The translations under genes and the position numbers were made by a program. 32,000 nt of DNA from Vibrio gelatinilyticus (GTDB lineage Bacteria; Pseudomonadota; Gammaproteobacteria; Enterobacterales; Vibrionaceae), in assembly GCF_022836845.1 (NCBI RefSeq), contig NZ_JAJNNZ010000002.1:15033-47032 (forward strand), read 5' to 3'. Under the pieces are notes generated by a model. It did no database searches. It saw only the letters and a list, made by a program, of their open reading frames with translations, and was not told the origin of the DNA. Positions 5,535-28,023 of the stretch are shown piece after piece (within the stretch, counting starts at the first letter, position 1; each line of letters opens with the position of its first letter).

Positions 5535-5560
5535 AATAAATGGCACGCCCTGTAGGATTC
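5535..5560. repeat. Island left attachment repeat: 26-bp copy of the tRNA-Arg 3' end plus 6 downstream nt
   Basis: AATAAATGGCACGCCCTGTAGGATTC at 5535-5560 is identical to 27941-27966. The right-hand copy forms the 3' end of the intact tRNA. Confidence 0.9.
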
Positions 5561-5694
5561 AATCCAGGAATTTAACCAATTTAAAGAGGGCTTAATTTAG
5601 GTGTTTTATCCTTAATTGTCAATGCATTATACTCCATATTTATAAATTGCCGATTTAACCAAAATTGCCTAAAATAACCCTAATTTAACCCCTT

Positions 5695-5719
5695 CGGCAC
5701 CACCACGGCACCACAGAAA
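5695..5719. promoter_or_regulatory. 25-bp repeat CGGCACCACCACGGCACCACAGAAA (two GGCACCAC units, 11-bp period); candidate arm-type integrase binding site, left copy
   Basis: Identical to 27873-27897. It lies 17 nt upstream of the int ATG. In the excised circle the two copies would flank the 26-bp core. Confidence 0.5.
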
Positions 5720-5735
5720 AGTAGGTTAAGGCACT

Positions 5736-7166: not shown

Positions 7167-7880
7167 TCACAGTACATAATTACTCATATCAATTGATACT
7201 AAGATAGCAGTAAAGTTATCACGGGCCTCAGTAGCTAAAACTGCAGCTTTTAATGACTCGGCTTGCTCTGTTGTGGAAGGTTGCTCAAGAGCTTGAGCAA
7301 TTTGCCTGTCACTGAGCATATCACTCACCCCATCAGTGCACAGCAGCAATACCCCAGAGTGAAATGGATAAAATGTCGCACTGCTTGGCTTTAATGGTTT
7401 TTTCATTCCTAAGCCTTGGGTAATTAAGTTGCGTTGGGGGTGGGTCGATGCTTCCTCTTCGGTCAAGATGCCTCTGTGGATTAAATCTTGTACAAAAGAA
7501 TGATCGTCACTTAAACGTATCAGCTTTCCATCGGCGAACCAATACAGGCGTGAGTCTCCCACCCAAGTGAACTCAACTGCGTTACCCACCACTTGCACGG
7601 CCAGTATGGTACTGCCCATACCTTCGCATTCTGGGTTTGCATTGGCATGATTCAAAATAGCTTGATGGCAATAGTGCGCTCTTTGTTCAATCGGTTGATG
7701 TTCAAGTAAGGCTTGTTGGTAGTTTTTTACCGCTATATCACTCGCTACCTCTCCACTGTTATGGCCACCCATACCATCTGCTATGACATAACTTTGGTTC
7801 ACCTCATCAAGCAAGTAAGCATCTTCATTGTGTTGATATACATGCCCAACGTCTGAAAAAGCAACAACATCAACCAGCAT
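7167..7880 (-). CDS. PP2C-family Ser/Thr protein phosphatase
   Basis: Motifs ADGMGGHNSGEVAS, GSTILAV, VGDSRLY, LLLCTDGVSD and DNFTAIL. The start codon overlaps the Hsp70-like stop by 1 nt (TAATG). Confidence 0.9.
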   Translation of the reverse strand: MLVDVVAFSDVGHVYQHNEDAYLLDEVNQSYVIADGMGGHNSGEVASDIAVKNYQQALLEHQPIEQRAHYCHQAILNHANANPECEGMGSTILAVQVVGNAVEFTWVGDSRLYWFADGKLIRLSDDHSFVQDLIHRGILTEEEASTHPQRNLITQGLGMKKPLKPSSATFYPFHSGVLLLCTDGVSDMLSDRQIAQALEQPSTTEQAESLKAAVLATEARDNFTAILVSIDMSNYVL

Positions 7881-9385
7881 TAAACATTGACCTCAATTTG
7901 CTCCAACCATTGTTGTTCTTGCAGCAGTTGCGCATTGAGAGCCAAAGATTCTTCCCCTAATACATGCTCTATGACTTTTTGGGTAGCTGGGTCTTTGGCA
8001 CTAATGGTTACCAAACCTTCTAAGTCATAACCCAGCGTTACTTCTATGCCATGATGTTTCTTCGGATTTTCAATTAAAAAACTGCTCACACCTAAGCTAA
8101 TCGGCTCTTCATCATCGCGTTGTTGTACTACCTCTAACACCATGCGAGTTTGATCATCACGATTGGTATAGAAAGTATGGCTCGCCAAAGCAGGCACTGG
8201 GCTGTTTTGAGCGATGAGAACTTTGACTTTAGGTTTACCATCACTACCAATCGCACGGAAACCAAGGTTGTATGAACATACACCTTGCAACGTTTTACTT
8301 TTCGTTGGTGACGTTACAAACATTTGCTCAGCCAGCAAGGCCGCGCCATAGGCCACCGCTTGGTGGGGTTGGCGACACACTAAGTCATTTGGCGAGCGCC
8401 CAGCGGCTTTTGCCACTTTATCCTTTACCAAAGGCAACAGCGATGACCCGCCCGTTAATAGCAAGGTATCAATAAATGACCAATCCATCCCCGCAGCTTG
8501 CAAGCAGTGCTCGCACACTTGCAATGTTTGTTCGACAAACTCTTCGAGCAGTTGATTAAACTTATCTTGAGTAAGGATGAAGTCTAGAGTTTGCCCAGCG
8601 ATGACCAAGGTTTTTGATAGATGGCTTTTACCTGGTTTTGAAAGTTTTACTTTGACCTCTTGAGCGTAACGGCGCAGCTTGGTTTGATTGGCAGCGTCCA
8701 ATTTACATTGACCATAACGACGCTCAAACTCATCCATGACATAAGCAATGATGATATCGTCGATATGCTTGCCACCGTGGGTATTGCTGCCTTGTGTGGC
8801 TAGCGCATATAAACCTTGCTCTCCGACTTGCAAAACCGTGGCATCAAAAGTGCCTCCGCCTAAATCGTAAACAAAATAGGTGTTATCACCTTGCTGCTGA
8901 TAGCCATAAAAGGTAGCTGCGGCCACGGGCTCTTCCACTAACTTAACGTGCTTTAATCCGGCCAACTTAGCGGCCTCTTTGGTGGCTTTTCTTTGACCAT
9001 CCGTAAAGTTGGCGGGTACGGCAATCAACGCACCTTCAATCAACTCAGGGGTTGCCGCTTGCACGTCTTTTAAAAGTTTCTTGAGCACCAGCGCCGATAG
9101 CCCCTGCGGCGACCAATCACGCCCTAACTCGTCGTGATAAACAACTTGAGATTGCCCTAATGCCAGCTTAAAAAAGCGTGCTTGGGTAAGCTCTGGCTCA
9201 TCATCGAGTAACTCTTCAAGCGCGCTGCCTACCAGCACTCCGTTTTCACTTATGTATACACATGATGGCGTACGATATTCATCCACTTCGTGACAGTCAT
9301 GAAAAAGAGCGGGTATACCCTGTGGGTTCAAATACGATACCAGCGAAAAGGTGGTACCTAAATCTATACCTATGTACATCATCAT
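7880..9385 (-). CDS. Hsp70-family ATPase (DnaK/HscC-like) with nucleotide-binding domain and beta substrate-binding domain but no helical lid
   Basis: Motifs GIDLGTTFS (phosphate 1), YDLGGGTFD (phosphate 2) and LLLTGGSSLLP (adenosine). The C-terminal part resembles SBD-beta (YNLGFRAIG...VLIAQNSPVP...FYT..DDQTRMVLEVVQ...IEVTLGYDLEGLVTISAKD). At 501 aa it is too short to include a lid. Confidence 0.88.
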   Translation of the reverse strand: MMMYIGIDLGTTFSLVSYLNPQGIPALFHDCHEVDEYRTPSCVYISENGVLVGSALEELLDDEPELTQARFFKLALGQSQVVYHDELGRDWSPQGLSALVLKKLLKDVQAATPELIEGALIAVPANFTDGQRKATKEAAKLAGLKHVKLVEEPVAAATFYGYQQQGDNTYFVYDLGGGTFDATVLQVGEQGLYALATQGSNTHGGKHIDDIIIAYVMDEFERRYGQCKLDAANQTKLRRYAQEVKVKLSKPGKSHLSKTLVIAGQTLDFILTQDKFNQLLEEFVEQTLQVCEHCLQAAGMDWSFIDTLLLTGGSSLLPLVKDKVAKAAGRSPNDLVCRQPHQAVAYGAALLAEQMFVTSPTKSKTLQGVCSYNLGFRAIGSDGKPKVKVLIAQNSPVPALASHTFYTNRDDQTRMVLEVVQQRDDEEPISLGVSSFLIENPKKHHGIEVTLGYDLEGLVTISAKDPATQKVIEHVLGEESLALNAQLLQEQQWLEQIEVNV

Positions 9386-9464
9386 CCTTTTATCTCTTGT
9401 CTAAAGAGAGATGTATTGAAATCTAAATTGAAGCGCAACAAAGGTGTCAGCCCGGAATTATTGA

Positions 9465-12311
9465 TTAGCTCTTGAGCGCTTTACTACTTTGGCACAATTG
9501 CGAAATCTCTTTGACCATAGATTTGAGAGAGCGCTCCAAGTTAGTGCTATTTATTTCTATTGCGCCTGACTTAGACATAGAATCAACCCTATCATTAGAA
9601 CCCCAGATATTCATTGCTTTACTTGAAAAGTCAAAGCGATGCTCATACTCCTCATCATAACGCCAAGTGTTTACCCAGCTATATTCGGTATAAAAACTGC
9701 CATTACGATCCATGCGAAGATCACTACTGAGCTTATAAGTATGTTTCTCATATTCGACATATATAATGCACGGTCGACTAGCGGAGTATGAAACATCAAA
9801 GTCAGCTTTTAGCTTTCTGCGATGGGTTTCACTTGAATAAGAGGTATCCGTACTGTTTTCAAGCTTTGATTTTAAGCTCTTCATTAGCTTAACAACCTTT
9901 TCCATGTTGCTCTTATATTGCTTTTCCTGTTCAGCTTTTTTACGAGCTGCTTCTTCTTTGGCTTTTTTCAACCTAGCAGCCTTAGCCCATTTACTTTTGA
10001 TTTGAGCAATTTCAGCGTCATAACCGCCAAGTAAATCTCGAAAACTTTGCGAAGCTTGGCTATAGCTTTGCTTGGCATCTGAATATAACCCTTGCTTAGC
10101 TAAGCCTTGCCCTCTAGTTTGCAGGGCCTTGGCCTCTGTTTGTTTTGGTGATTGCAATGAGTATTTTTTGATTGCGGCCAACAATGCCGCTTGAGATTTT
10201 TGGGCGTTTATTTTTTCTGCGCTAATCAGTTGTGCTTGCTCTAATTCCTGCACCAGTAGTAGCTTGCTTTCAATAAACGCCTTGTTTGCTTCGGTAAACT
10301 GGCCTTCACTGCTTACTTTCAAGGCTAATTGGTAGGCGGATAGCCCTTGTTTTGCCTGCTCTGAATAGCCATAGCCCTGCTCAGTTAAATAGGCTTCAAG
10401 CTTAGTTTTCGCGTTTGTAGTTTGGATTTTTAGAGCATCGACCTCTTTGACTTGCATCAGTGCCTGCACCAGTAGTGGCTCACTTTCAGTAAATGCGTTG
10501 CTTGCTTGGGTAAACTGGCCTTCACTTCGCGCTTGACGAGCATTGTGATAAACCATTAACGCTTGCTTCACCGCCTCCGATTGACCATAACCTTGTTCAG
10601 AGAGGTAAGACTCAAGAGCGATTTTCGCCTTGGTGGCTTTAGTCTGGCTAACATACAGGGATTTACCGGCACCGAACTCTCGCCAAAGGTTTTGATAGCC
10701 CGTCTTAACTTCTTCAAGCAGCACTAACGCCTGAGCACTCTGCTGTTCATTGAGGTTTTGATTGCGAAGCAAGGTTTGCGCTTGAGCCAGTTTGCCTTCC
10801 AGCTCAGGGATGAGATTGCCATCAACCAAGTAATCTTTCGTCAAGCGTTCGGCAAGTCGAAGCGGTTCAAGGTTGTTACTGTTATTACGCTCGGCATCGC
10901 GTAAATCTGAAGTTAAATCACGCACGCCATTATCGAAGCGGCGAGCGATGGTTTTGATTTCCCCTTGCAGCCTACCTGCTTGCGCTTGATGCTCGGCAAT
11001 GAGGGCTTTATCGACTGGAGTTAAATCGGCAATAATGCTATCGAGCCAACCTTGCTGATAAGCAAAGCCAGTGCCAGCCAAAAGTGCAATGGAGAGCGCA
11101 ACAGGGACAAACTTGTTGCTGGTATGACTGCTGCTCTTGCTTATCTGAGTGATTTGGGCTTTAGCAGGCTTAGCCGTGCTAGTTAGAGCTTGATTGAAAG
11201 TCGTGATGTCAGCAAAGCGTTGGTCTGGCTTGTTCGATAACGCTTGGTCTACGGCATCGGATAGCCCTTGAGGCACATCTGCTCTTACTTCGCATAAACT
11301 TTCAATTCGACCTGTTGGCACTTCACCTGTCAGCATTTCATATAAAAGGACCGCTAAAGCGTATTGATCGGCACGACCATCAATCGTTCCCATTCCTTTG
11401 AGTTGCTCGGGTGCCATATAATAAGCAGTGCCTGTAGCGGCGCCTGTTTGGGTGCGCTGGGTGTTGCTGAGCACGCGAGCAATGCCAAAGTCCATTAGCT
11501 TTACGCTGCCATCTTCACATAAGAAGATGTTCTCTGGCTTAATATCACGATGCACTGTGTGCTGGTGAGCGTACTCAAGGGCATCGCAAAGTTTGTTGAT
11601 GATGTCTAAGGCATCATCGACTTCCATTTGCTGGTTGAGTTGCTGCTGATTGCTGAGCAAAGCACGCAGCTCTTGTCCTTCGAGCAGCTCCATGGTTAAG
11701 AATAGGTGCTCACCGTCTTGCTGAACATCGAAGACGTTAATGACGTTCGGGTGAGACAAATTGCTCGACAACTTGGCCTCGTCCATAAAACGCTGCTTAG
11801 CACGCTCACTTTGCGATAAATGCGGCAACACCATTTTAATCGCTATAGCTTGTTCCTTCACTTCATCAAAAGCAGCATAAACCACACCCATTCCGCCATG
11901 GCCGAGCACTTCGGTAATGCGGTAACGGTTAGCTAGCTTATGACCGATGGGTAAGGCTGTCACTTGACTTGCTGTCATCAAAGAACCAGTATCAAAATCG
12001 GTTCCAGATAGCGGCATATCCGCCATCATGGTTTGGCTCAGTGATGAACTAGCCGAAGGGGTCGATTGCGTCGTCTCTGGCTGGTTGTTAGCCTCATTAG
12101 CTAACTCAGTTAATAACCATTGAGCAACCTGCTCTAGGTCTACTTTTGATTGTCGAAACTTGTCCGCTAATGCTGGTGTGGGTGCTGAACTGATTTTATC
12201 ATCCAACAACCGATGCTTTTCCACTAACGCTTTTTTAATCGCAGCTTCTGGCTGACTGGCTAACGCTTCATCCGTTAGCCCAAGCTTTTGCTTTGCTTGA
12301 TTGATATCCAT
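9465..12311 (-). CDS. Receptor-type Hanks Ser/Thr kinase paralog 1. Order: J-like N-domain, kinase, one TM helix, helical repeats, unknown about 150-aa C-terminal domain
   Basis: Kinase motifs GHGGMGVVYAAFD, AIAIK, HRDIKPENIF, DFGIA and YYMAPE. One hydrophobic helix, FVPVALSIALLAGTGFAY, lies at about aa 401-417. There are two about 60-aa repeats (YL(S/T)EQGYG.SE..KQ.L..Y......SEGQFT.A..AF.ES..LLVQ). There is no FGE domain and no TR match. Confidence 0.9.
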   Translation of the reverse strand: MDINQAKQKLGLTDEALASQPEAAIKKALVEKHRLLDDKISSAPTPALADKFRQSKVDLEQVAQWLLTELANEANNQPETTQSTPSASSSLSQTMMADMPLSGTDFDTGSLMTASQVTALPIGHKLANRYRITEVLGHGGMGVVYAAFDEVKEQAIAIKMVLPHLSQSERAKQRFMDEAKLSSNLSHPNVINVFDVQQDGEHLFLTMELLEGQELRALLSNQQQLNQQMEVDDALDIINKLCDALEYAHQHTVHRDIKPENIFLCEDGSVKLMDFGIARVLSNTQRTQTGAATGTAYYMAPEQLKGMGTIDGRADQYALAVLLYEMLTGEVPTGRIESLCEVRADVPQGLSDAVDQALSNKPDQRFADITTFNQALTSTAKPAKAQITQISKSSSHTSNKFVPVALSIALLAGTGFAYQQGWLDSIIADLTPVDKALIAEHQAQAGRLQGEIKTIARRFDNGVRDLTSDLRDAERNNSNNLEPLRLAERLTKDYLVDGNLIPELEGKLAQAQTLLRNQNLNEQQSAQALVLLEEVKTGYQNLWREFGAGKSLYVSQTKATKAKIALESYLSEQGYGQSEAVKQALMVYHNARQARSEGQFTQASNAFTESEPLLVQALMQVKEVDALKIQTTNAKTKLEAYLTEQGYGYSEQAKQGLSAYQLALKVSSEGQFTEANKAFIESKLLLVQELEQAQLISAEKINAQKSQAALLAAIKKYSLQSPKQTEAKALQTRGQGLAKQGLYSDAKQSYSQASQSFRDLLGGYDAEIAQIKSKWAKAARLKKAKEEAARKKAEQEKQYKSNMEKVVKLMKSLKSKLENSTDTSYSSETHRRKLKADFDVSYSASRPCIIYVEYEKHTYKLSSDLRMDRNGSFYTEYSWVNTWRYDEEYEHRFDFSSKAMNIWGSNDRVDSMSKSGAIEINSTNLERSLKSMVKEISQLCQSSKALKS

Positions 12312-12334
12312 ATTGGGTTGCCTGATTCTCTATT

Positions 12335-14188
12335 TTAGGATGCTTGTAACTGGTTGATCAGGTTTTCTACCTGACGTTGCAATTGATTAAGTGGTTGCGT
12401 CTGCATCTGCAGTTGGCGAAGTTGCTGTTCAACAACCGCAATACGCTGGTTGGCTTGTTTGGCCTCAAACTGTTGCTGCTGGCGTTTTTCTTCTACGTGG
12501 GTTTTGTGCTGACTCTCTAGCTCGCTGAGCCAATGACGTTTTTGCTGATCTAAAAAGCGGTTGATTTGATTCACTTTCAAACGGTTTGTTTCAGAGACCA
12601 ATCGCTTAGCGATGTTATTCACTTCTCCACGAACTTTATGCAGCTCTTTTTCCATTCTTGCGGCTTCTTCTTTTGGAAAAGAAATGTAAGAGTAAATCAC
12701 ACCAGCAAAAAATAGTGGCAAGCCGAGCAACATAAGCACCGAACGAAGATTAGGGCTAAGCGCCCCCAACACCATACCGACAAACATCAAGCCCATCATC
12801 GCTTGGCGACCAGCGCCTAATCGCGCCAAAAAACCTTGGTGCGGCAACTCACCTTGATAACGAATTTCTAGCCCCAGCACTTCTTGTAGCTCTTGTTGAA
12901 GGCGAGATTTAGAAAACGTGTGTGACGATAATTGATACTGCTCAGTTTGTGGGTGGTTCTTGACTAACGTAGTGATATTCGCCAAACCTTGTTCAAGTGT
13001 TAACACATCTTGAATCAAAAACTGGTCACTTTGCTGTTTGATCACTGCTAACAATTGCTTCTGATAGTCTTCACTTAAGCTGAGTTTTATGATTTTGTGC
13101 TGCTTTTGTTGGTCAAGTCCATCAACATCCAACTTTTCAATAAATGCCGCTAAGTTAACAGCGTTAGTTGCATTGGGCGTTTCGCGCTTACGGCTCAGTT
13201 CCGCTAGATTCTTACTTAGCTCATTAAACTCATCATTAATGCGCTGTTTTAACGTGCTATCAAGCATGATGGATTCGGCATTTCCATGGCCAGTACGATC
13301 CGTTTGGCGACTTTCACGTTTTTTACGATTGGTGAGCTTTTTCGCTTGCTGCTCAAATTCATCATTTAACGCATCAACCCCTTGAAGCAGAGCATTACTT
13401 TGACTTAGTAAGTTCAGTTTTTGACGAAGTGGGTCATTTGAGTTGGTGAGAATCTCTGGGATTGAAGTTTCCACCGCTTCGGTTAATAACTGTTCTGGCA
13501 AGCGTATTGGGCAACGAAAACGGTTGAACCAGCCATTGTCGGGTAGCTGTAACCCTTTGGTGAGATCAGGCACATGGATTAGTGGCCAAAAGCCTTGCAT
13601 TTGAGCCGTCAATTGCTCCAACTCTCTCGCATCTTCTTCGGTTAGCTCAGCTTCTGCTTCCCCCGCAATGGCTAGAACGTTACTGTTCATCAGCACCCGA
13701 GTTAATGCCGCTGGGTAGGTTTTTAGGGTGGTGATAGTATCGGGGATATAAATCGTTAGGTTTTGTAGGCCTTTTTCGCTTGGCACATCCAACTTGAGGC
13801 TTTGAGGCGTATCTCCAAAAGAGAGCCCTTCACCCAGCACCTTTTCTAAACTTGTCCAATCATCAAACTCTTGACGCGTGCCGTTCTGCTCTAGGCTGTA
13901 ACCTTGTTTTTTAAGCGTAATTTCTAGTAAACCGATCGCTTTTTCGTGATTAATGGCGAAAACACTATATTCTTGCCCATAGAGCCAGTTAATAGCCGCA
14001 TTTCGGGCAGTACCGGATAGCCCGATTAGGGTGAGGTGGAAATCCTGACTTTGGGACTGAGTAGCAAGGTGTTGAAACTTCTCGCTAAGCGGTGTTTGTG
14101 CTTGACCAAGCTCTAAAGCTTGACTGATATCTACCGCCTGTTGACTAGATGTACTGAACTGTTGGCGCAGCAGTGCCAAATTTTCCAT
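12335..14188 (-). CDS. 617-aa membrane protein: N-terminal dynamin/GTPase-like domain with degenerate P-loop, coiled coils and a central TM hairpin
   Basis: RBS AAGGATAGGA. LTLIGLSGTARNAAINWLYG looks like the dynamin-type xxVxGxxxxGKSTLINALLG but has A-R-N where G-K-S would be. IYIPDT resembles G3 DxxG. Two adjacent hydrophobic helices (MMGLMFVGMVLGAL...VLMLLGLPLFFAGVIYSYISF) are followed by a Q/E/R-rich coiled coil. The fold assignment is inference. Confidence 0.6.
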   Translation of the reverse strand: MENLALLRQQFSTSSQQAVDISQALELGQAQTPLSEKFQHLATQSQSQDFHLTLIGLSGTARNAAINWLYGQEYSVFAINHEKAIGLLEITLKKQGYSLEQNGTRQEFDDWTSLEKVLGEGLSFGDTPQSLKLDVPSEKGLQNLTIYIPDTITTLKTYPAALTRVLMNSNVLAIAGEAEAELTEEDARELEQLTAQMQGFWPLIHVPDLTKGLQLPDNGWFNRFRCPIRLPEQLLTEAVETSIPEILTNSNDPLRQKLNLLSQSNALLQGVDALNDEFEQQAKKLTNRKKRESRQTDRTGHGNAESIMLDSTLKQRINDEFNELSKNLAELSRKRETPNATNAVNLAAFIEKLDVDGLDQQKQHKIIKLSLSEDYQKQLLAVIKQQSDQFLIQDVLTLEQGLANITTLVKNHPQTEQYQLSSHTFSKSRLQQELQEVLGLEIRYQGELPHQGFLARLGAGRQAMMGLMFVGMVLGALSPNLRSVLMLLGLPLFFAGVIYSYISFPKEEAARMEKELHKVRGEVNNIAKRLVSETNRLKVNQINRFLDQQKRHWLSELESQHKTHVEEKRQQQQFEAKQANQRIAVVEQQLRQLQMQTQPLNQLQRQVENLINQLQAS

Positions 14189-14618: not shown

Positions 14619-16490
14619 ATGGAAACAAAGGTCACCATTATGCCTTCAAGTGAACTTAACGCTATGCGAACGAATCTAGAGCAGCAACTGGCCGAAGCCA
14701 GAGCTCAGGCTGAGAAAATACAACAACTGGCTCAAAACTCTGAGCTTGATAGACAGCGGGCACAAAATGAAGCTTCGCTGGCTCAGCAACAAAGTGAAGC
14801 GAGTCAGCAGTCTGCGAGCCAAGCTCAGCAGCAAGCACAAGCATCAACTCAAGCAAGCAGCCAGGCTCAAAAAGATGCCGACAATGCCAATCAAAACGCG
14901 AGTCAAACCCAACAGCATTCCGAACAAGCCGCTCAAGCGAGTCAATCTGCTCAGCAACACTTTAATACTGCAAACCAAGCGGCAAGCGATGCGCGAGAAC
15001 AAGCTGCGAATGCAGCAAGAGCCTCTGATAGCGCAAGCAGTGAGGCGGCAGAAGCACGCCAAGCATCTAGCCAAGCAAGCAGCGCAGCAAGTGAAGCACA
15101 AACTGAAGCTCGTACGGCGCAAAGCGCCGCTAGTGATGCTCAATCAGAGCTGACTGCTGCAACCACAGCGGCCGCGATGGCTGGGCGAGCTGCAAGTGAA
15201 ACGAGCCAGTCACAATCGCAAGCAGCGCAAGCCGCTAGTGAAACGGAGCAAGCTCAATCTTCCGCGCAAAATGCACAATCGCAAGCAGAAAACGCGAGCC
15301 AAGGAGCACAAAGCGCTCAATCACAAGCCGAAGGAGCAAATCAACACGCTCAAGCGGCTCAATCTGATGCACAAACTGCGTCGCAACAAGCGCAACAATT
15401 CCAATCCTCCGCAGATTTGGCCAGCCAAAGTGCGCAATCCGCGCAACAACAAAGTCAGCAAGCGAGTCAAGCCAGTGCACAGGCTCAAACTCAAAGCGAA
15501 ACCGCGAAAGACGCATCCTTAATGGCACAAAGTCAAACAGAGCAAGCACAACAACAGGCGGCGCAAGCCAGCGCTGAAGCTCAAGATGCACAAAATGAAG
15601 CAGAAACCGCCAAGGACGATACGTTGACTGCTCAAACAGCGGCCCAAGCGGCCAGCGAAGCCACCAGTGCTGCACAAGCTTCAGCGCAGGCCGCAGCGCA
15701 AGGTGCGGCTGAACAGCAGCAACAGGCGCAAACTGCCAACGAAAAAGCCACCGAGTTTGCTGAGAAAAGCAATCAAGCCGCTCAGCAAGCATCCAGCGAC
15801 CAAAGCACTGCTGCGAACGCAGCCTCACAAGCACAAAATTTTGCAGGCAATGCGGAATCGGCACAGTCCACAGCACAAACAGCGTCAAGTTCAGCGCAAT
15901 CGGCTAACAATGAGGCGCAAAGTGCACAAAGCCAAGCACAAACTGCCGCCAGTCAAATTGAAGCTGAACTGAGTAAAGCCGCAGAAAGTGCTTCTTTAGC
16001 AGATAATGAAGCAGAGCAAGCCAGTAGCGCGCTGCACAGTATTCAACACCTTAGGAATGAAGCGTCTCAAGCAAATGCTGTTGCAATGCAAGCAAAAGCC
16101 GATGCCCTTGCAGCCAAAGAAGAGGCTGAACAATTATTGGCTCAAGCACGAGATGCTGCCAACCAATTAGTGGGTGTTTTGGAACAGATGAGAAGCCAAG
16201 GCGAAGCCGCGGTGCAAGATGCACTGCAACACGCAGCCAAAGCTGAGAGTTATATGACAAACGCAGGTGAGCATATGATTCAAGCCGGTAACCACTGCAC
16301 TCAAACTCGAATGTTTATGGAGGCGGCCGGCGAAGCCAAAGGCGAAACGGAAAGCTGTAAGGATGATGCCATTAGCCTGAAAGTCAGCATTGAGGGCAGC
16401 GTATCAGACGCAAAAAGCTCTGCCTCGAATGCTGAGCAAAGTGCCCGTGATGCCGCCGAGGCTGCGTCTCGAGCTGAGCGATTTGCTTAA
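14619..16490 (+). CDS. 623-aa low-complexity Ala/Gln/Ser(/Glu/Thr/Asn)-rich protein, predicted helical or disordered, with no signal peptide or TM
   Basis: A long ORF with a good terminator after it. The repetitive AQ/SQ/AS composition runs from about aa 45 to 470. The last about 150 aa are more ordinary and contain two Cys. An alternative start is the ATG at 14640 (MPSSELN) with AAGG upstream. Other frames are open only because of the compositional bias. Confidence 0.7.
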   Translation: METKVTIMPSSELNAMRTNLEQQLAEARAQAEKIQQLAQNSELDRQRAQNEASLAQQQSEASQQSASQAQQQAQASTQASSQAQKDADNANQNASQTQQHSEQAAQASQSAQQHFNTANQAASDAREQAANAARASDSASSEAAEARQASSQASSAASEAQTEARTAQSAASDAQSELTAATTAAAMAGRAASETSQSQSQAAQAASETEQAQSSAQNAQSQAENASQGAQSAQSQAEGANQHAQAAQSDAQTASQQAQQFQSSADLASQSAQSAQQQSQQASQASAQAQTQSETAKDASLMAQSQTEQAQQQAAQASAEAQDAQNEAETAKDDTLTAQTAAQAASEATSAAQASAQAAAQGAAEQQQQAQTANEKATEFAEKSNQAAQQASSDQSTAANAASQAQNFAGNAESAQSTAQTASSSAQSANNEAQSAQSQAQTAASQIEAELSKAAESASLADNEAEQASSALHSIQHLRNEASQANAVAMQAKADALAAKEEAEQLLAQARDAANQLVGVLEQMRSQGEAAVQDALQHAAKAESYMTNAGEHMIQAGNHCTQTRMFMEAAGEAKGETESCKDDAISLKVSIEGSVSDAKSSASNAEQSARDAAEAASRAERFA

Positions 16491-16512
16491 GATTTAACTT
16501 TCCCTAATAGTG

Positions 16513-16540
16513 AAGCGCCATATGTGGCGCTTTATTTTTA
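16513..16540 (+). terminator. Rho-independent terminator between the convergent Ala/Gln/Ser-rich gene and the DGR RT
   Basis: AAGCGCCA-TATG-TGGCGCTT hairpin followed by TATTTTT. Confidence 0.75.
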
Positions 16541-16590: not shown

Positions 16591-17592
16591 TTATTGGGCT
16601 GACACAGCCCAATTCAAGGGAGAAATTATCGCCCTTCTCAAACCAACACTTTCACCATGAACAGCATGACCAATCCACGCCATCATCGACGCCTTGACGA
16701 AATCAAGAGGCAGCTTGCCTTGTATATAGCGCCGATGTTTTTGACGATACTTTCGCGCAAAACGATAGCCATTATCATTGCGCACCCAGCGACGCGTCGA
16801 ACTTACTTTATAGCCCAGCATATCGACTTTTTGTACTGTTCTTAGCAGGCTTTGCTTGCGAGGATGCAACACTAACCCAATTGCAACAAGTTCAGATTCA
16901 ATGACGTTTTGAATTGCCCACAATTGCGATTTACAGTTAGACATAATAGTTAAGTCATCAACGTAACGCAGATAAGCAGGTGATTGGCTTGCTACCTTGT
17001 GGTCTAGCTCATTAAGAAATAAATTAGCAAAACACTGACTGGTTAAATTACCCATTGGCAACCCGACCAACTGCTGAGGAGACTTTAATAGTTCTCGAAT
17101 CAAAAAAAGCAACGGCTTGTCTTTAATAACACGCTTGATTTTATCAAATAGTATTTTGTTATTTATACTGGCGAAAAAGGAACGTATATCGAGTTTCAGC
17201 ACATATCGATACTTTCGTGCCCATACCTGATAAACATTGACAGCCAAATGCGCCCCCTTACCTTTGCGGCAGGCGTAACTGTGATGATAGAACCGAGCCT
17301 CAAAGATAGGCTCCAGTACATTCATGATGGCATGGTGTAGTACCCTATCTCGGAACGGTGCCGCGCTAATCTCTCTTGGTTTTCTATCGAAAATAATAAA
17401 CTTTCGATAACCGCCAAACCGATAGCTGCCTGAGCGAAGCTCTGCTTGCATGGCAAATAGCTCCGCCTCTAACTGGTAACTAAATTGGGCCACTTTCACT
17501 TGATTGCGTTTGCCCTTAGCTGCCTTTTTATAGGCTAAATACAAATTTGAAAAGCTAGTGACTTTATCCCAAAGATTACCCAGTCTTTTCAT
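16591..17592 (-). CDS. DGR-type reverse transcriptase
   Basis: 333 aa. Motifs LDIRSFFASI, LPMGNLTSQCFANLFLNELD (the DGR-typical SQ in motif 4) and LRYVDDLTIM (YxDD). RBS GGGGTGAAGG. It lies directly downstream of the TR and avd. Confidence 0.92.
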   Translation of the reverse strand: MKRLGNLWDKVTSFSNLYLAYKKAAKGKRNQVKVAQFSYQLEAELFAMQAELRSGSYRFGGYRKFIIFDRKPREISAAPFRDRVLHHAIMNVLEPIFEARFYHHSYACRKGKGAHLAVNVYQVWARKYRYVLKLDIRSFFASINNKILFDKIKRVIKDKPLLFLIRELLKSPQQLVGLPMGNLTSQCFANLFLNELDHKVASQSPAYLRYVDDLTIMSNCKSQLWAIQNVIESELVAIGLVLHPRKQSLLRTVQKVDMLGYKVSSTRRWVRNDNGYRFARKYRQKHRRYIQGKLPLDFVKASMMAWIGHAVHGESVGLRRAIISPLNWAVSAQ

Positions 17593-17750
17593 AAGCCTTC
17601 ACCCCTTTTGGTCCCTACTCGATTTGAAGGCGCTATCCATAGCGTAACTATTCAAAATAATTTCCTTATTATTTTAAGATAAGCATTCATGGGCACATCA
17701 TTTACACGCTGCGTAACCCTTGAGTTACCGCACTCTGGCAGTGATGCGAA

Positions 17751-17860
17751 CTGGACTAAACGAAAGCCATTATTGTTGTTGCGATTGCCAAGCGAATTGT
17801 TGTTGCGATTGGCTGAGCGCAGATTTCTCGGATTATTGTTCCAAGACCCGCCGCGAAGCA
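17751..17860 (-). repeat. DGR template repeat (TR)
   Basis: 93 of 110 positions are identical to the VR at 18342-18451. In the target frame it reads LRGGSW NNN P R N LRSA N R NNN SLG N R NNNN GFRLVQ, rich in AAC/AAT codons. It starts 36 nt after the avd stop and ends 158 nt before the RT start. Confidence 0.93.
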
Positions 17861-17895
17861 GACTTTCGATAGATGCTTACCTTTTTGTCCATAAT

Positions 17896-18255
17896 TTAAT
17901 TCTGTGACGCCCCCTTTCGCCAGCCTCCGACTTGATTGCCAATATCCACCACATATTGGCTGCCCGTTTCATAGCTTTTGATATTAATGACCTTTAGCTC
18001 AAAGCTAAGGCGCCATAAGTGGCGCAATAGGTTTAAATTCCGATTAGCCTTATCTAACCATTGCAACTTATGCCTGGTCGTTGCATACCCTGCCTCAACT
18101 AAGCAAGAGAGCAGTGCTAAGGCGCAACGTTCTATTTTTTCACCTAGGCTAAAGCGTCTATTCTTAGGGAACTGATCGAGCTTTGGTATTAGCCATATTA
18201 GATACTGGTGGCAGTTCTCCACCACAGCAATGCTGCCTGGCTTGTTCATTGTCAT
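17896..18255 (-). CDS. avd: Accessory variability determinant (Avd), four-helix-bundle / 23S rRNA-IVS protein family
   Basis: 119 aa. The sequence HQYLIWLIPKLDQFPKNRRFSLGEKIERCALALLSCLVEA is typical of the four-helix-bundle family. It occupies the canonical position between the target gene and the TR. Confidence 0.8.
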   Translation of the reverse strand: MTMNKPGSIAVVENCHQYLIWLIPKLDQFPKNRRFSLGEKIERCALALLSCLVEAGYATTRHKLQWLDKANRNLNLLRHLWRLSFELKVINIKSYETGSQYVVDIGNQVGGWRKGASQN

Positions 18256-18266
18256 CGTTACCTACG

Positions 18267-18307
18267 CCCTTTTCTTGGCTAATATCAGATTAAAACCAAG
18301 AAAAGGG
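18267..18307. promoter_or_regulatory. 12-bp perfect inverted repeat (CCCTTTTCTTGG, 17-nt spacer, CCAAGAAAAGGG) just 3' of the VR and target stop
   Basis: Read directly from the sequence. It lies 26 nt downstream of the stop at 18333. On the minus strand no U-run follows it; the avd RBS and ATG come next. Confidence 0.6.
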
Positions 18308-18332
18308 AAAAAGAAAAAAGTGTAAAGGGAAA

Positions 18333-21227
18333 TTATTGGCCCTGGACTAAACGAAAGCCAAAACTGTTGAAGCGAATGCCAAGCGAATAGTAGCTGCGAG
18401 GGGCTGAGCGCAGATAACTCGGAACACTGTACCAAGACCCGCCGCGAAGCACCCGTCTTTCACACTCGCCTGACTTCCAAGCGTTGCCGTTTCCGGGTGC
18501 GCCATGGTAGTTGTCATTCCAGCAATCTTGCGTCCATTCCCATACATTACCATGCATGTCATAGAGGCCAAAGCGGTTGGCTGAGAAGCTTTTTACGGGT
18601 GCGGTTTTGCTGTCATCCCAACGACTGCCACAGCCATCACAGTTGGCTCGATTACTACCAATGCTATTGCCCCAGCTGTATTTGCTTTGGCTCCCTGCGC
18701 GGGCAGCATATTCCCACTGCGCCTCACTCGGCAGGCTAAACTTAAGACCAGTCGTTTTATTCAGCCATGGAATAAACTGCTGGGTAATGTCTTTATAGCT
18801 GACGTTGATGACAGGGCGGCTGCCACGCCCCCAGTTTTGGTCATCTGGTCTATGCGAGCAGCCACCAGCGGCCACGCAAGCATCCCACTGGGCAAAGGTG
18901 ACTTCGTGTTCCATCATCTTAAAACTTTTCAGCGTCACGCGATGTACAGGCTTTTCATCGTCAACTTGACTATCATTGGAGCCCATTCTAAAGCTACCAG
19001 CGGGGATGGTCACTAACTTACCAACCAAGCGAACTGCTTTTGCCGCCTTCTCTCGTGCCGCCTTCTCTCGTGCCGCCTTCTCTATCGCCGCTTTAGCCGC
19101 TTTAGCCGCTTTAGCCGCTTTAGCCCATTGTGCTTCAACATTGGCGATATCACCAGATAACCCATTAAGCAATTGTTGGTAGTGTTGCGCAGCTTGGCTA
19201 TAGCTTTGCTTGGCTTCTGAATATAAGCCTTGCTTGGCTAAGCTTTGCCCTTTAGTTTGCAGGGTATTGGCCTCAGTTTGTTCTGGTGATTGCAATGAGT
19301 ACTTTTTGATTGCGGCCAGCAATGCGGCTTGAGCTTCTTCTGCTTTTATTTTTTCTGCGCTAATCAGTTTTGTTTGCAACAGTGCCTGCACCAGTAGCGG
19401 TTCACTCTCAGAAAACACCTTGTTTGCTTGAGTAAAATGCCCTTCACTGCGTGCTTTCAAGGCTAATTGGTAGGCGGATAGCCCTTGTTTTACTTTTTCG
19501 GATTGACCATAGCCTTGTTTAGCTAGATAGGCTTCAAGCTGGGCTTTCGCGCTGGTCGCCTTAGTTTGGCTGGCATAAAGACTTTTGCTGGCATTAAATT
19601 CTTGCCATAAGTTTTGATAGCCAGCTTTAACTTCTTCAAGTAGCAATAGTGCTTGAGCACTTTGCTGTTCATTAAGGTTTTGAGTACGTAACAAAGTTTG
19701 TGCTTGCGCAAGCTTACCTTCCAGCTCTGGGATGAGATTGCCATCAACCAAGTAATCTTTCGTTAAGCGCTGGGCAAGTCGAAGCGGTTCAAGGTTGTTA
19801 CTGTTATTACGCTCGGCATCGCGCAAATCCGAGGTTAAGTCACGCACCCCGTTATCGAAGCGGCGAGCGATGGTTTTGATTTCCCCTTGCAGCCTACCTG
19901 CTTGCGCTTGATGCTCGGCAATGAGGGCTTTATCGACTGGAGTTAAATCGGCAATAATGCTATCGAGCCAACCTTGCTGATAAGCAAAGCCGCTCCCCGC
20001 CATCACGGCCAGAGAAAGCGCAATTGGCACCAGTTTGTTGCTGCCTTTTGGATAAGTTGTCGGTTGCGTTTTTAGATTGGAAGTATTCGATATATTGCTT
20101 TTGATACCTATGGTTGTAGCAAGGGCTAATTTGAGTTCAGCCGCGTCACTTGGCCTGTCTTCGGCTTTTGTCTCTAAAGCTTTGTCAACAGCATCTGACA
20201 AGCCTTGTGGTATTTGGTCATTCAGCTCGGTAAGCGACTTAAAACGCCCCGTTGGCACATCTCCTGACAGTAATTCATAAAGCATCACCCCGAGGGCATA
20301 AATATCTGCTCTCTGGTCAACTTTACTGGTGCCTTTGAGTTGTTCAGGTGCCATGTAATAGGCAGTCCCTGTTGCAGCGCCAGTTTGGGTGCGTTGGGTA
20401 TTGCTCATTACGCGCGCAATACCAAAATCCATCAACTTAACCTCACCTTCTTCATCAAGCCAGATATTCTCAGGTTTGATATCACGGTGAACCGTCTGTT
20501 TATGGGCGTAGCTTAGAGCGTCACATAAGGAATTGGCAATGTTCATTGCCTCATCTACATCAAAGGGCACATTAGCAGCTTGACGAGCTTCAATTAACGC
20601 TCGTAAGTCTTGGCCTTCAAGGAGCTCCATGGTGAGAAAAACTTGGTCACCTTGTTGCTGTACATCGAACACATTAACGATATTTGGATGCGATAACTGG
20701 CTTGAGAGCTTGGCTTCATCCATAAAACGAGATAACGCCTTAGGGTTATTCACCAAGTGTGGTAACAGCGTTTTAATCGCGATGCTCTGCTCTTTGATGT
20801 TATCAAATGCTTGGTAGACAACGCCCATTCCACCTTGACCGAGCACACCCTCAATACGATAACGCCCAGCCAGCTCATACCCAGCCCGTAAGGTATTGAC
20901 AGTGCCTTGCGATACCGAGCTAAACTGAGTGCCCGACAAGGGCATATCCGCCATCATGGTTTGGCTGATTGAAGGAGATTCTGTTGCTAAAGCTGATGGC
21001 TTGGCTGCATTGTCCGCCAAACTTGCTCTTAATACTCGAGCCGCTTTTTCAGCATCGTTGAGACGCTGTTGATACTTATCGACTAACGCTTTCGTCGGGG
21101 CGGTTTCAATTTTTTCACGCAGCATCATTTGCTGCTTGGTTAATGCTTCGTTGATTTCATCGTTGGAAAGGGGCGCGCTTTGGTCACTACCTAGGCTAAG
21201 GTATTGCCTGGCTTGGCTTAACTCCAT
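18333..21227 (-). CDS. DGR target: receptor-type Hanks Ser/Thr kinase paralog 2. Order: J-like N-domain, kinase, one TM helix, helical repeats, Ala/Lys linker, C-terminal FGE-sulfatase/C-type-lectin-fold domain carrying the VR
   Basis: Kinase motifs GQGGMGVVYQAFD, AIAIK, HRDIKPENIW, DFGIA and YYMAPE. The TM helix LVPIALSLAVMAGSGFAY lies at about aa 399-416. The FGE-type domain starts at about aa 736 (nt about 18336-19022): IPAGSFRMGS, PVHRV.L..F.M...EVT..QW, LPSEAQWEYAARAG, GLYDMHGNVWEWTQD and RVLRGGSW...RSA.R....GFRLV. Confidence 0.92.
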   Translation of the reverse strand: MELSQARQYLSLGSDQSAPLSNDEINEALTKQQMMLREKIETAPTKALVDKYQQRLNDAEKAARVLRASLADNAAKPSALATESPSISQTMMADMPLSGTQFSSVSQGTVNTLRAGYELAGRYRIEGVLGQGGMGVVYQAFDNIKEQSIAIKTLLPHLVNNPKALSRFMDEAKLSSQLSHPNIVNVFDVQQQGDQVFLTMELLEGQDLRALIEARQAANVPFDVDEAMNIANSLCDALSYAHKQTVHRDIKPENIWLDEEGEVKLMDFGIARVMSNTQRTQTGAATGTAYYMAPEQLKGTSKVDQRADIYALGVMLYELLSGDVPTGRFKSLTELNDQIPQGLSDAVDKALETKAEDRPSDAAELKLALATTIGIKSNISNTSNLKTQPTTYPKGSNKLVPIALSLAVMAGSGFAYQQGWLDSIIADLTPVDKALIAEHQAQAGRLQGEIKTIARRFDNGVRDLTSDLRDAERNNSNNLEPLRLAQRLTKDYLVDGNLIPELEGKLAQAQTLLRTQNLNEQQSAQALLLLEEVKAGYQNLWQEFNASKSLYASQTKATSAKAQLEAYLAKQGYGQSEKVKQGLSAYQLALKARSEGHFTQANKVFSESEPLLVQALLQTKLISAEKIKAEEAQAALLAAIKKYSLQSPEQTEANTLQTKGQSLAKQGLYSEAKQSYSQAAQHYQQLLNGLSGDIANVEAQWAKAAKAAKAAKAAIEKAAREKAAREKAAKAVRLVGKLVTIPAGSFRMGSNDSQVDDEKPVHRVTLKSFKMMEHEVTFAQWDACVAAGGCSHRPDDQNWGRGSRPVINVSYKDITQQFIPWLNKTTGLKFSLPSEAQWEYAARAGSQSKYSWGNSIGSNRANCDGCGSRWDDSKTAPVKSFSANRFGLYDMHGNVWEWTQDCWNDNYHGAPGNGNAWKSGECERRVLRGGSWYSVPSYLRSAPRSYYSLGIRFNSFGFRLVQGQ
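18342..18451 (-). repeat. DGR variable repeat (VR), codons about 926-962 of the target kinase
   Basis: There are 17 mismatches to the TR, all at template A positions on the coding strand. 13 codons are changed: N/R to Y, S, V, S, Y, P, S, Y, Y, I, F, S, F. Confidence 0.93.
19041..19122 (-). repeat. In-frame tandem repeats inside the kinase 2 linker: 15-bp unit in about 3 copies (19041-19085), then 9-bp unit GCCGCTTTA in 4 copies (19087-19122)
   Basis: Read directly from the sequence. The repeats encode AKAAKAAKAAKA and AAREKAAREKAA. Confidence 0.85.
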
Positions 21228-25405: not shown

Positions 25406-26467
25406 TTAGGCTTTATCCACCATGCAGTGCAGTTGGCCATGTTGTTCAATAACTACGCCTCTATTCTGTAACCTCTGTAATGAGCGACTAAAGTTCTTAA
25501 CTGGATAACCGAGAGCTTTGAAGTCATCTCTTATAATTTCTCTTACCGTCGACTCACCTGAGGCAGATCTAGAGCGTATTATTTCCCACAGAGCAACTTG
25601 GACAGGACTCATCTCACTTTTTTCCGGATGACTATCAACATCTGGTACCTCTCTTGCTTCATCACTATCGACGCTCAATGAGTAGATATTCTTCCCCTCA
25701 TGATTAGTGAAAACCATTACAGGCTTTAAGGTATAAGCAGCAGGTTTTATGGGCTGGTCATCTTTCATTTTCTCGCAACTGAGTGTCAGACTCTCGCCTT
25801 CGGAATCATCACTCGGATTTTTCACCACTTTAAACTCAAAATCACAAGCAGCACGCAACGCAGAACTACCTCGCGCAGCATTGGCTTCGTTCTTCCCACT
25901 ATGGTGAACGATAAGCACTGAGACTTTCATCATGGCTTTCAGCATGTCACAGCCGGAAACAAAGAAGTTCATATCCCGCGTACTGTTCTCATCTGCACCA
26001 TTAAAGCACCGTGCTAATGTATCGAAGACCACCAGCTCTATCTGAGTATTTTCAACCTCCTCTATTTGTTTAATCGTCGACATCAACGCATTAAGTGAAC
26101 GAGGGTCTGCGATGTGTACAGGCTCATATATTGAGTAAAAGTTTTTTGCTGCCCCTCCCTTGAGGTTGGCACGCTCCCACGCTTTAATCCGACGCGGAGC
26201 ACCTATTCCACCCTCCGCTACCACATACAATACAGCTGCTTTCTTAACGTTACGGCCACTCCATGTCTTTCCTGTCGCAATGTGTGCGGCCCAGTCCATA
26301 ACAAGAAAGGACTTAAATGAACCACTCGGGCCATAGACGACACCAAATGAGTTCGCAGGCAAGATGCCTTCAATGAGGTAGTCGACTTGTACGTCATACC
26401 CCGTTGATCCTGATGTCCATGGGTAGAGTCTTTCGTTGCTCTGCGATACATAACTAACCATGTTCAC
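25406..26467 (-). CDS. RecA-fold AAA_25/RepA-like ATPase with C-terminal winged-helix domain (island replication/initiator-type protein)
   Basis: Walker A GPSGSFKSF, Walker B ELVVFDTLAR and LIVHHSGK. The C-terminus REIIRDDFKALGYPVKNFSRSLQRLQNRGVVIE is wHTH-like. It overlaps the upstream ORF by 14 nt. Confidence 0.75.
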   Translation of the reverse strand: MNMVSYVSQSNERLYPWTSGSTGYDVQVDYLIEGILPANSFGVVYGPSGSFKSFLVMDWAAHIATGKTWSGRNVKKAAVLYVVAEGGIGAPRRIKAWERANLKGGAAKNFYSIYEPVHIADPRSLNALMSTIKQIEEVENTQIELVVFDTLARCFNGADENSTRDMNFFVSGCDMLKAMMKVSVLIVHHSGKNEANAARGSSALRAACDFEFKVVKNPSDDSEGESLTLSCEKMKDDQPIKPAAYTLKPVMVFTNHEGKNIYSLSVDSDEAREVPDVDSHPEKSEMSPVQVALWEIIRSRSASGESTVREIIRDDFKALGYPVKNFSRSLQRLQNRGVVIEQHGQLHCMVDKA

Positions 26468-27872: not shown

Positions 27873-27897
27873 CGGCACCACCACGGCACCACAGAAA
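27873..27897. promoter_or_regulatory. Right copy of the 25-bp GGCACCAC-containing repeat (candidate arm-type Int site)
   Basis: Identical to 5695-5719. It lies 43 nt from the right core repeat. Confidence 0.5.
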
Positions 27898-27940: not shown

Positions 27941-27966
27941 AATAAATGGCACGCCCTGTAGGATTC
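27941..27966. repeat. Island right attachment repeat (within and adjacent to the intact tRNA-Arg 3' end)
   Basis: Identical to 5535-5560. Confidence 0.9.
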
Positions 27967-28023
27967 GAACCTACGACCACATCCTTAGAAGGGACGTGCT
28001 CTATCCAGCTGAGCTAAGGGCGC
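27947..28023 (-). tRNA. tRNA-Arg (anticodon UCU)
   Basis: I folded the reverse complement GCGCCCTTAGCTCAGCTGGATAGAGCACGTCCCTTCTAAGGATGTGGTCGTAGGTTCGAATCCTACAGGGCGTGCCA by hand. The acceptor stem is GCGCCCT/AGGGCGT, the D stem GCTC/GAGC, the anticodon stem CGTCC/GGATG with loop CTTCTAA, and the T stem GTAGG/CCTAC with TTCGAAT. It ends in an encoded CCA. Confidence 0.92.

Follow-up and report, generated by a model that had tools for sequence, protein, structure and literature searches.

The DNA considered here is a stretch of 32,000 nucleotides (nt) from Vibrio gelatinilyticus ZSDZ34, referred to as the window. On its minus strand lie the parts of an apparent diversity-generating retroelement (DGR): a target gene for a protein kinase that ends in a variable region (VR), a gene for an accessory variability determinant (avd), a template region (TR) and a gene for a reverse transcriptase (RT). 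The order target(VR)-avd-TR-RT on a single strand had been called canonical in the original prediction made for this DNA, and it is indeed that of the annotated cassette of Bordetella phage BPP-1. To our knowledge, DGRs are the only natural systems of targeted protein hypermutation in prokaryotes. Tens of thousands of them have been catalogued, and most of their cellular targets are without known function. The features of the element, with positions counted from the first letter of the window, are as follows.

16591-17592, minus strand: DGR RT, 333 amino acids (aa), with YVDD at aa 209-212, MGNLTSQ at aa 180-186 and Arg73 (equivalent to Arg74 of Brt, the RT of BPP-1)
17593-17770, minus strand: 3' end of the TR and the 158-nt spacer up to the RT start, read as the structured part of the DGR RNA and presumed priming region
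17751-17860, minus strand: TR, 110 nt, with 31 adenines, 26 of these within 13 AAY codons
17896-18255, minus strand: avd, 119 aa, recognised by NCBIfam, Pfam and PHROG
18267-18307, minus strand: inverted repeat CCCTTTTCTTGG / CCAAGAAAAGGG, a perfect 12 bp with a 17-nt loop, between the target stop and the avd start
18342-18360, minus strand: putative initiation of mutagenic homing (IMH) site, the last 19 nt of the VR at its 3' end (GGCTTTCGTTTAGTCCAG region), which the TR has in identical form and in which both adenines are unaltered
18342-18451, minus strand: VR, codons 926-962 of the target gene, with a variable core at TR/VR positions 21-91
18333-21227, minus strand: target gene, 964 aa, matching Pfam Pkinase (1.3e-50) and FGE-sulfatase (1.1e-55)

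The TR and VR align without gaps and are identical at 93 of 110 positions, as found both with MAFFT and by direct comparison of the minus strand. All 17 mismatches fall on an adenine of the TR, read on the coding strand, and comprise 11 A>T, four A>G and two A>C changes. The TR is made up of 31 A, 29 C, 26 T and 24 G, and the chance that 17 random mismatches would all fall on A is 6.9e-12 (hypergeometric). The likeness breaks off sharply at either end, and there is no third copy within the window, where none is expected by chance. In the frame of the target gene the TR reads LRGGSWNNNPRNLRSANRNNNSLGNRNNNNGFRLVQ, that is LRGGSW-NNN-P-R-N-LRSA-N-R-NNN-SLG-N-R-NNNN-GFRLVQ with its 13 AAY codons, and the VR reads LRGGSWYSVPSYLRSAPRSYYSLGIRFNSFGFRLVQ, in which 13 codons are altered, 12 of them AAY and the other an AGA that has become AGT. 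The codons for G and Q come after the VR and are followed by the stop of the target gene; the TR begins 35 nt past the avd stop. The degree of identity, the restriction of mismatches to adenines and both translations with their 13 altered codons had all been put forward in the original prediction and were reproduced, realignment giving no non-adenine mismatch. Two of its details need correcting: it counted some 23 TR adenines where there are 31, and it took the VR for the last 37 codons of the gene, which has two further codons before the stop.

Alteration has affected 17 of the 31 TR adenines (55%), with A>T prevailing (11 of 17). In vitro, Brt-Avd misincorporates at ~52% of template adenines and dATP is the nucleotide most frequently misincorporated (PMC7826257). 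Since the level of misincorporation and the dominance of A>T match these values, they count as support for a DGR. Two other origins of the TR/VR pair were rejected. A chance repeat or a plain segmental duplication does not agree with mismatches confined to adenines (p = 7e-12), and a TR that is a recent copy of the VR, with changes driven by selection, is incompatible with the A-to-N direction of change and with the AAY codon structure.

The avd product matches the NCBIfam equivalog NF033474 (DivGenRetAVD) with 85.6 bits, for a curated cut-off of 80, as well as Pfam bAvd (9.5e-16) and the PHROG family 'Avd protein of DGR' (4e-22), and NCBI names the identical protein, WP_244354900.1, as a DGR Avd. 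The RT matches Pfam RVT_1 (3.8e-26) and PHROG 1423 (1.7e-102). Its best match in the PDB, 8ub7_A (E 1.2e-45), was identified as Brt by comparison with the BPP-1 record, and the two proteins share 35% identity; group II intron RTs come next, the best of them at 3.3e-22. By its sequence, the RT is a member of the DGR lineage. It could have fallen outside the DGR clade in profile searches, an outcome that the original prediction had allowed for, but the best match is Brt and rival models lie far below their cut-offs. As a group II intron RT it scores 149.9 bits with TIGR04416, where the cut-off is 300, and Rfam gives no intron RNA. A retron or defence-associated RT (DRT) was likewise rejected, as the NCBIfam retron and Drt models are far below cut-off and PADLOC reports only generic RT similarity. 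The Rfam scan of the window returned tRNA only, and neither intron nor retron RNA.

The catalytic YVDD was said to be intact, and is so. The claim of a DGR-type motif 4 stands for the GxxxSQ part, whilst the first residue of the motif is Met, not the usual Ile, Val or Leu. DGR RTs carry [I/V/L]GxxxSQ at this place, where group II and retroviral RTs have QGxxxSP (PMC7826257). The full signature here is MGNLTSQCFAN, with Met at codon 180 (17053-17055); among 120 homologues, 117 have Ile and two have Leu. Over the 87 columns with at least 95% conservation in these homologues, the RT departs at three, the median for the homologues being one and the maximum five. Next to the signature motif it reads CFANLF, compared with [Y/V]FAN[L/I]Y in the eleven closest homologues inspected.

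The RT matches a protein of Vibrio sp. ZSDZ34 (V. gelatinilyticus) with 100% identity, and its next-closest relatives are just 52-57% identical to it. Their genes adjoin bAvd genes and TR/VR pairs with adenine-only mismatches, save for one C exception in a pair common to two of the loci (L002/L003). The targets carry FGE-sulfatase domains, two fused to kinases and another to a caspase-like Peptidase_C14 domain, and in a metagenome-assembled genome (MAG) of the Cellvibrionaceae the order is Hsp70-PP2C-TonB_C-kinase/CLec-avd-RT, where CLec denotes a C-type-lectin domain. Where two assemblies share identical RTs (L002/L003 and L004/L005), their VRs are identical too, and no variability is seen.

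The non-coding parts of the element are also recognisable. The terminal GTCCAG of the putative IMH is common to the TRs and VRs of related DGRs. An inverted repeat downstream of the VR is present in about a third of DGRs. Here it lies 35 nt downstream of the VR, and its DNA fold of -16.2 kcal/mol (z = -4.97) was equalled by none of 200 shuffles. The 3' end of the TR and the spacer could be aligned with those of three related DGRs, giving common sequence blocks and 41 base pairs with 93% of cells paired, compared with 29-46% when the partners were slid. Compensatory changes are found in 22 of the 41 pairs (4-8 in controls), and none of 500 shuffles attains the observed values; these figures come from four sequences only, with the structure taken from the same alignment. 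Covariation in the four DGRs is thus suggestive rather than conclusive of a conserved spacer RNA structure. The covarying helices fall within 17619-17763. In BPP-1, cDNA synthesis is primed by a structured spacer, with which such a structure would agree. Folded as a single sequence, the spacer does no better than shuffles (z = -0.47), and scans for promoters and terminators gave background level only.

The target protein, encoded on the minus strand, can be divided into the following regions.

about aa 1-65: J-domain-like helical region, from weak profile and Pfam matches
aa 123-341: Hanks-type Ser/Thr kinase, with GQGGMG, IAIK, HRDIKPEN, MDFG and MAPE readable in the translation
aa 399-417: one predicted transmembrane helix, from hydropathy and flank charges
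aa ~420-730: helical/coiled region
aa 737-961: FGE-sulfatase/CLec domain, from sequence and predicted fold

Judging by its motifs, the kinase domain looks active. The CLec domain matches PvdO, formylglycine-generating enzymes (FGEs) and the DGR variable protein TvpA (2y3c) in sequence, and its AlphaFold model (pLDDT 78.5, pTM 0.82) matches the same three in fold. In an alignment with human FGE, both catalytic cysteines map inside the VR, and both are missing from the target. Because of this loss the domain is best read as a binding scaffold and not an enzyme. Among 21 homologous CLec domains, conservation is high save at the AAY-templated positions. In 97% of 68 gammaproteobacterial homologues the kinase is followed by a hydrophobic helix with a positive N-flank and a negative C-flank, the median Kyte-Doolittle value (KD) being 2.3. 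From the helix and flank charges in the target and its homologues, an N-in/C-out topology is predicted, which would leave the kinase in the cytoplasm and the CLec domain in the periplasm.

The N-terminus of the target (21033-21227, aa 1-65) and that of a paralogous kinase encoded in the same window (12117-12311) are J-domain-like, with APT(D/E) instead of HPD. A 25-member profile of this region has 23 PDB matches, most of them DnaJ/Hsp40 J-domains (best E 0.018), and Pfam DnaJ is the commonest weak match of the individual N-termini (9 of 25 members, best E 0.0033). In three related loci, an Hsp70-like gene adjoins the gene for the J-like kinase.

Taken together, the TR/VR signature, Avd, the RT and the gene order identify the locus, with a probability of roughly 90%, as a complete chromosomal DGR of the BPP-1 type, carried on a tRNA-Arg island and diversifying a receptor-like kinase. 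By homology, the RT-Avd complex would bind an RNA covering the TR and the structured spacer. Synthesis of cDNA would be primed within the spacer and run across the TR, with misincorporation almost only opposite adenines. The cDNA would then replace the VR at the 3' end of the target gene, a step in which the shared 3' block (the putative IMH) and the downstream inverted repeat may act as guides. As the variable adenines belong to 13 AAY codons, some 15^13 (2e15) protein variants at most could be produced, none with a stop codon. The element most likely varies the ligand specificity of a single-pass receptor-like kinase through its predicted periplasmic, non-catalytic CLec domain, and a paralogous kinase encoded nearby, a PP2C phosphatase and an Hsp70-like protein are its probable partners in signalling. 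What the sequences show is the anatomy of the element, its adenine-only signature, the families to which the RT, Avd and the CLec domain belong, the covariation in the spacer RNA and a second VR allele in a related island. That the element is active today, how the kinase spans the membrane, what its CLec domain binds and with which proteins it signals are inferred, and the view of the original prediction that the element looks functional belongs with these points.

A related island in Vibrio methylphosphonaticus S4B1 (NZ_JAMKMS010000027.1) provides a view of the history of the element. It is 89-95% identical across four shared segments, and avd, the TR and the RT are absent from it. Between its kinase and Hsp70 genes, at 13200-13620, lies a pseudogenised 3' fragment of the target gene with in-frame stops, which carries a different copy of the VR together with an identical 3' flank; the edge between similarity and deletion coincides with the start of the inverted repeat of the window. 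Compared with the present TR, the S4B1 VR differs at 15 of the 31 adenines and at 10 of the 79 remaining positions; compared with the present VR, it differs at 17 of the 31 TR-adenine sites and at 10 of the 79 others (Fisher p = 1.2e-5). The two islands thus hold different adenine-mutagenised VR alleles that stem from essentially the same template, so that the element must have varied its target at some time in the past of these islands. The original prediction had argued that homing occurred at least once, and the second allele backs it. As the present VR is without any non-adenine difference from the TR, the sequences also suggest that the last homing event was recent.

A second gene of the S4B1 island, at 10001-13162, encodes a 1053-aa operon kinase whose N-terminus is orthologous to that of the paralogue lacking a CLec domain, and which itself carries a CLec domain. 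The stretch equivalent to the VR, RFSAKSWHMMLMQRQKYYVLFSRSTTV, is without the conserved scaffold residues SW..P..LRSA.R, and could be either a VR in decay or one that is templated in another manner.

Several observations weigh against an intact and working DGR of this kind. Met180 of the RT sits at the position of Brt Ile181 and is unique among the 120 closest homologues; in Brt, Ile181 promotes adenine misincorporation, and I181N halves it (PMC7826257). The last 19 nt are the same in TR and VR, leaving no difference between IMH and IMH* to impose direction, although DGRs without this difference do occur (Wu et al. 2018, PMC5758913). The inverted repeat is AT/purine-rich, whereas that of BPP-1 is GC-rich; in the related loci L002 and L004, hairpins with pyrimidine/purine arms are found at comparable positions. 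The transmembrane segment of the target is moderately hydrophobic (KD 1.44). The exact 964-aa target is missing from a collection of 15 billion proteins, which holds no match more than 63% identical to it; the RT, Avd and paralogous kinase of the same ZSDZ34 contig are present there, and it is possible that public annotation leaves the target gene out or marks it as a pseudogene. The element is found in one genome only, and pattern scans gave no VR allele beyond the S4B1 remnant: the 45 nt at the 3' end of the TR, with every A as N, had no match in genome or metagenome collections, and the pattern of the VR flank recovered only V. methylphosphonaticus among genomes and no metagenome contig.

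These observations leave some room for a DGR that has kept its structure but has lost all or nearly all of its activity, with a VR written in the past and since fixed and a cassette that has not yet decayed. The Met at a near-invariant Ile, where the Brt residue promotes adenine mutagenesis, would fit such a state, as would the failure of the scans of genome and metagenome collections to reveal population variation, and the loss of avd, TR and RT from the V. methylphosphonaticus island shows that the cassette can be dispensed with. This is nevertheless doubtful, at perhaps the level of a serious minority view, given that all three open reading frames (ORFs) are full length, that YVDD and Arg73 are intact, that the spacer RNA retains every conserved helix and that the RT departs at 3 of 87 highly conserved columns, within the range of its homologues (median 1, maximum 5). 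The complete lack of non-adenine differences between TR and VR, where the S4B1 remnant has 10 in 79, also leaves little time since the last homing.

Other readings of the locus fare much worse. It is highly improbable that the C-terminal domain is a working FGE or PvdO/EgtB-type enzyme whose variable stretch reflects tolerated drift, even though its sequence and fold match PvdO and FGEs strongly and homologues are publicly annotated as 'SUMF1/EgtB/PvdO family nonheme iron enzyme'. Where human FGE has ..syCyryrCaars.., the target has ..syl...rsaprs.., without the catalytic pair of cysteines; the variable positions coincide exactly with the templated AAY codons, and the top matches include TvpA, a DGR variable protein of known structure. 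Least credible, to the point of being negligible, is the view that the 3' end of the gene underwent a plain segmental duplication near an unrelated group II intron, retron or defence-type RT. The sub-threshold matches of the RT to such models in NCBIfam and PADLOC, from which this idea draws what plausibility it has, lie far below curated cut-offs, as with the group II RT at 149.9 of 300 bits. The adenine-only mismatches (p = 7e-12), the presence of Avd, the conserved spacer, a closest structural relative that is Brt and an Rfam result without intron or retron RNA all speak for a DGR instead.

The DGR lies within a genomic island, the other features of which are listed below.

5535-28023: genomic island, ~22.4 kb, from tRNA-Arg repeat to tRNA-Arg(TCT)
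5535-5565: partial tRNA-Arg repeat, a 31-nt direct repeat, 94% identical, att-like
5736-7031: tyrosine integrase (Phage_integrase and Arm-DNA-bind_3)
7167-14188, minus strand: operon for a 617-aa protein, the paralogous kinase, an Hsp70-like protein and PP2C
7167-7880, minus strand: PP2C phosphatase
7880-9385, minus strand: Hsp70-like ATPase
9465-12311, minus strand: paralogous kinase, 948 aa, without a CLec domain
27947-28023, minus strand: tRNA-Arg(TCT), from a tRNA scan

The att-like ends of the island are located at 5535-5565 and 27941-28023, and a second repeat of ~25 nt, CGGCACCACCACGGCACCACAGAAA, is found just inside both of them (about 5696-5720 and 27873-27897). The GC content of the island is not distinct from that of its flanks. 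Two further genes have phage relatives: 24705-25334 matches a small-terminase PHROG (1.4e-29), and 25406-26467 encodes a primase/helicase-like AAA_25 protein (PHROG 5.5e-102). In its predicted gene content, the island resembles phage-inducible chromosomal islands (satellites).

The products of the 7167-14188 operon are probable signalling partners of the target, although no function can be assigned to the 617-aa protein. The two kinase paralogues (9465-12311 and 18333-21227) are related in a mosaic fashion. At third codon positions the kinase domains have an identity of 0.2-0.5, whereas aa 427-456 are encoded by DNA that is 100% identical, and in the part that follows (aa ~457-700) the third-position value lies mostly between 0.5 and 0.87. 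The juxtamembrane and helical region thus seems to have undergone gene conversion or recombination recently. In the paralogue, the C-terminal ~150 aa, which have no family match, stand in place of the CLec domain.

Between the operon and the RT gene, on the plus strand, is an ORF of 623 aa (14619-16490) that consists almost entirely of low-complexity repeats rich in Q, A, S, E and T, with a GC content of 0.546, an AT skew of 0.49 and no family match. The V. methylphosphonaticus island contains a counterpart, called as a 616-aa gene, to which it is ~92% identical in nucleotides, and owing to this conservation the ORF is probably a real gene. Between it and the convergent RT gene, at 16505-16540, lies a hairpin, AAGCGCCA-loop-TGGCGCTT followed by TATTTTTA on the plus strand, which is probably a shared or bidirectional terminator.

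It is tempting to go further and to see the CLec domain as a hypervariable periplasmic 'antigen receptor' for a transmembrane kinase with a J-like domain, working with a dedicated Hsp70-like protein, PP2C and the non-variable paralogue as mobile, possibly phage-satellite-like cargo, so that the whole would form a programmable envelope sensor for the surveillance of phages or competitors. We consider this extended scheme unlikely; if it were true, the element would serve envelope surveillance rather than the tuning of housekeeping signalling. The element adds one instance to the catalogued DGRs and to a target architecture seen in cyanobacteria, purple sulfur bacteria and MAG surveys. It is also a convenient experimental model, combining a cultivable Vibrio, a clean TR/VR pair, a single target with a predicted receptor-kinase topology and a comparator that has lost the cassette, and such a model could show what a DGR-diversified kinase senses.

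The closest parallel in overall organization is the mtd-avd-TR-brt cassette of BPP-1. Order and strand are the same, the TR comes soon after avd, and a spacer of ~150 nt precedes the RT. Avd is homologous, the RT is recognisably akin to Brt (35% identity), and adenine-only TR/VR differences are common to both, as are a VR at the C-terminus, within a CLec fold, and an inverted repeat past the VR, which by its position corresponds to the repeat that BPP-1 has downstream of its IMH. The element described here differs in being part of a chromosomal island, not a phage tail-fibre module, and in having a membrane kinase as its target where BPP-1 diversifies a receptor-binding protein. Its TR and VR are 110 nt long, compared with 134 in BPP-1, and have no distinguishable IMH*; the AT/purine-rich inverted repeat lies 35 nt from the VR, and Met replaces Ile181.

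In its variable domain, the target is most like TvpA of Treponema denticola (PDB 2Y3C), which it matches with E = 2.4e-18 in sequence and E = 1.5e-13 in Foldseek. In both, the CLec fold is of the FGE type and the DGR-variable positions fall within the final ~40 residues; TvpA, however, is a lipoprotein without a kinase domain. A further comparison is with DGR-associated conflict or 'antigen sensor' systems (Kaur et al. 2020, PMC7159879; Dore et al. 2024, PMC10907252). In these, multidomain signalling or effector proteins invariably end in the CLec (FGS) domain, as the target does here; related RTs serve a caspase-like (Peptidase_C14)-CLec target, and the present element resides in a mobile island. 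Unlike these systems, no STAND/NACHT, vWA-MoxR or GTPase core was detected here. The kinases match the PADLOC models PD-T4-6 and mad6 over the kinase domain only, and a defence role for the element would be speculative.

The combination of kinase and CLec domain in a DGR target is already published, just as Avd had already been named by NCBI. Kinase-CLec proteins are the commonest multidomain DGR targets in cyanobacteria (Vallota-Eastman et al. 2020, PMC7517822), correspond to domain type b12 of Wu et al. 2018 (PMC5758913), have been reported from Thiohalocapsa PB-PSB1 (Dore et al. 2024, PMC10907252) and appear in a 2024 MAG survey, where they are annotated PknD/Pkn1 (PMC11661182). The target shares with them an N-terminal Hanks-type kinase and a C-terminal CLec/FGE-sulfatase domain containing the VR, and non-diversified paralogues likewise occur in the same genome. 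The link to an Hsp70-like/PP2C module and the J-like N-terminus find no mention in these kinase-CLec papers. Together with the predicted receptor-kinase topology, the Met variant of the RT motif and a comparator island from which the DGR has been lost, they make up the less familiar side of the element. The cyanobacterial targets are for the most part predicted to be cytosolic, whereas the CLec domain of the Vibrio kinase is predicted to be extracytoplasmic.

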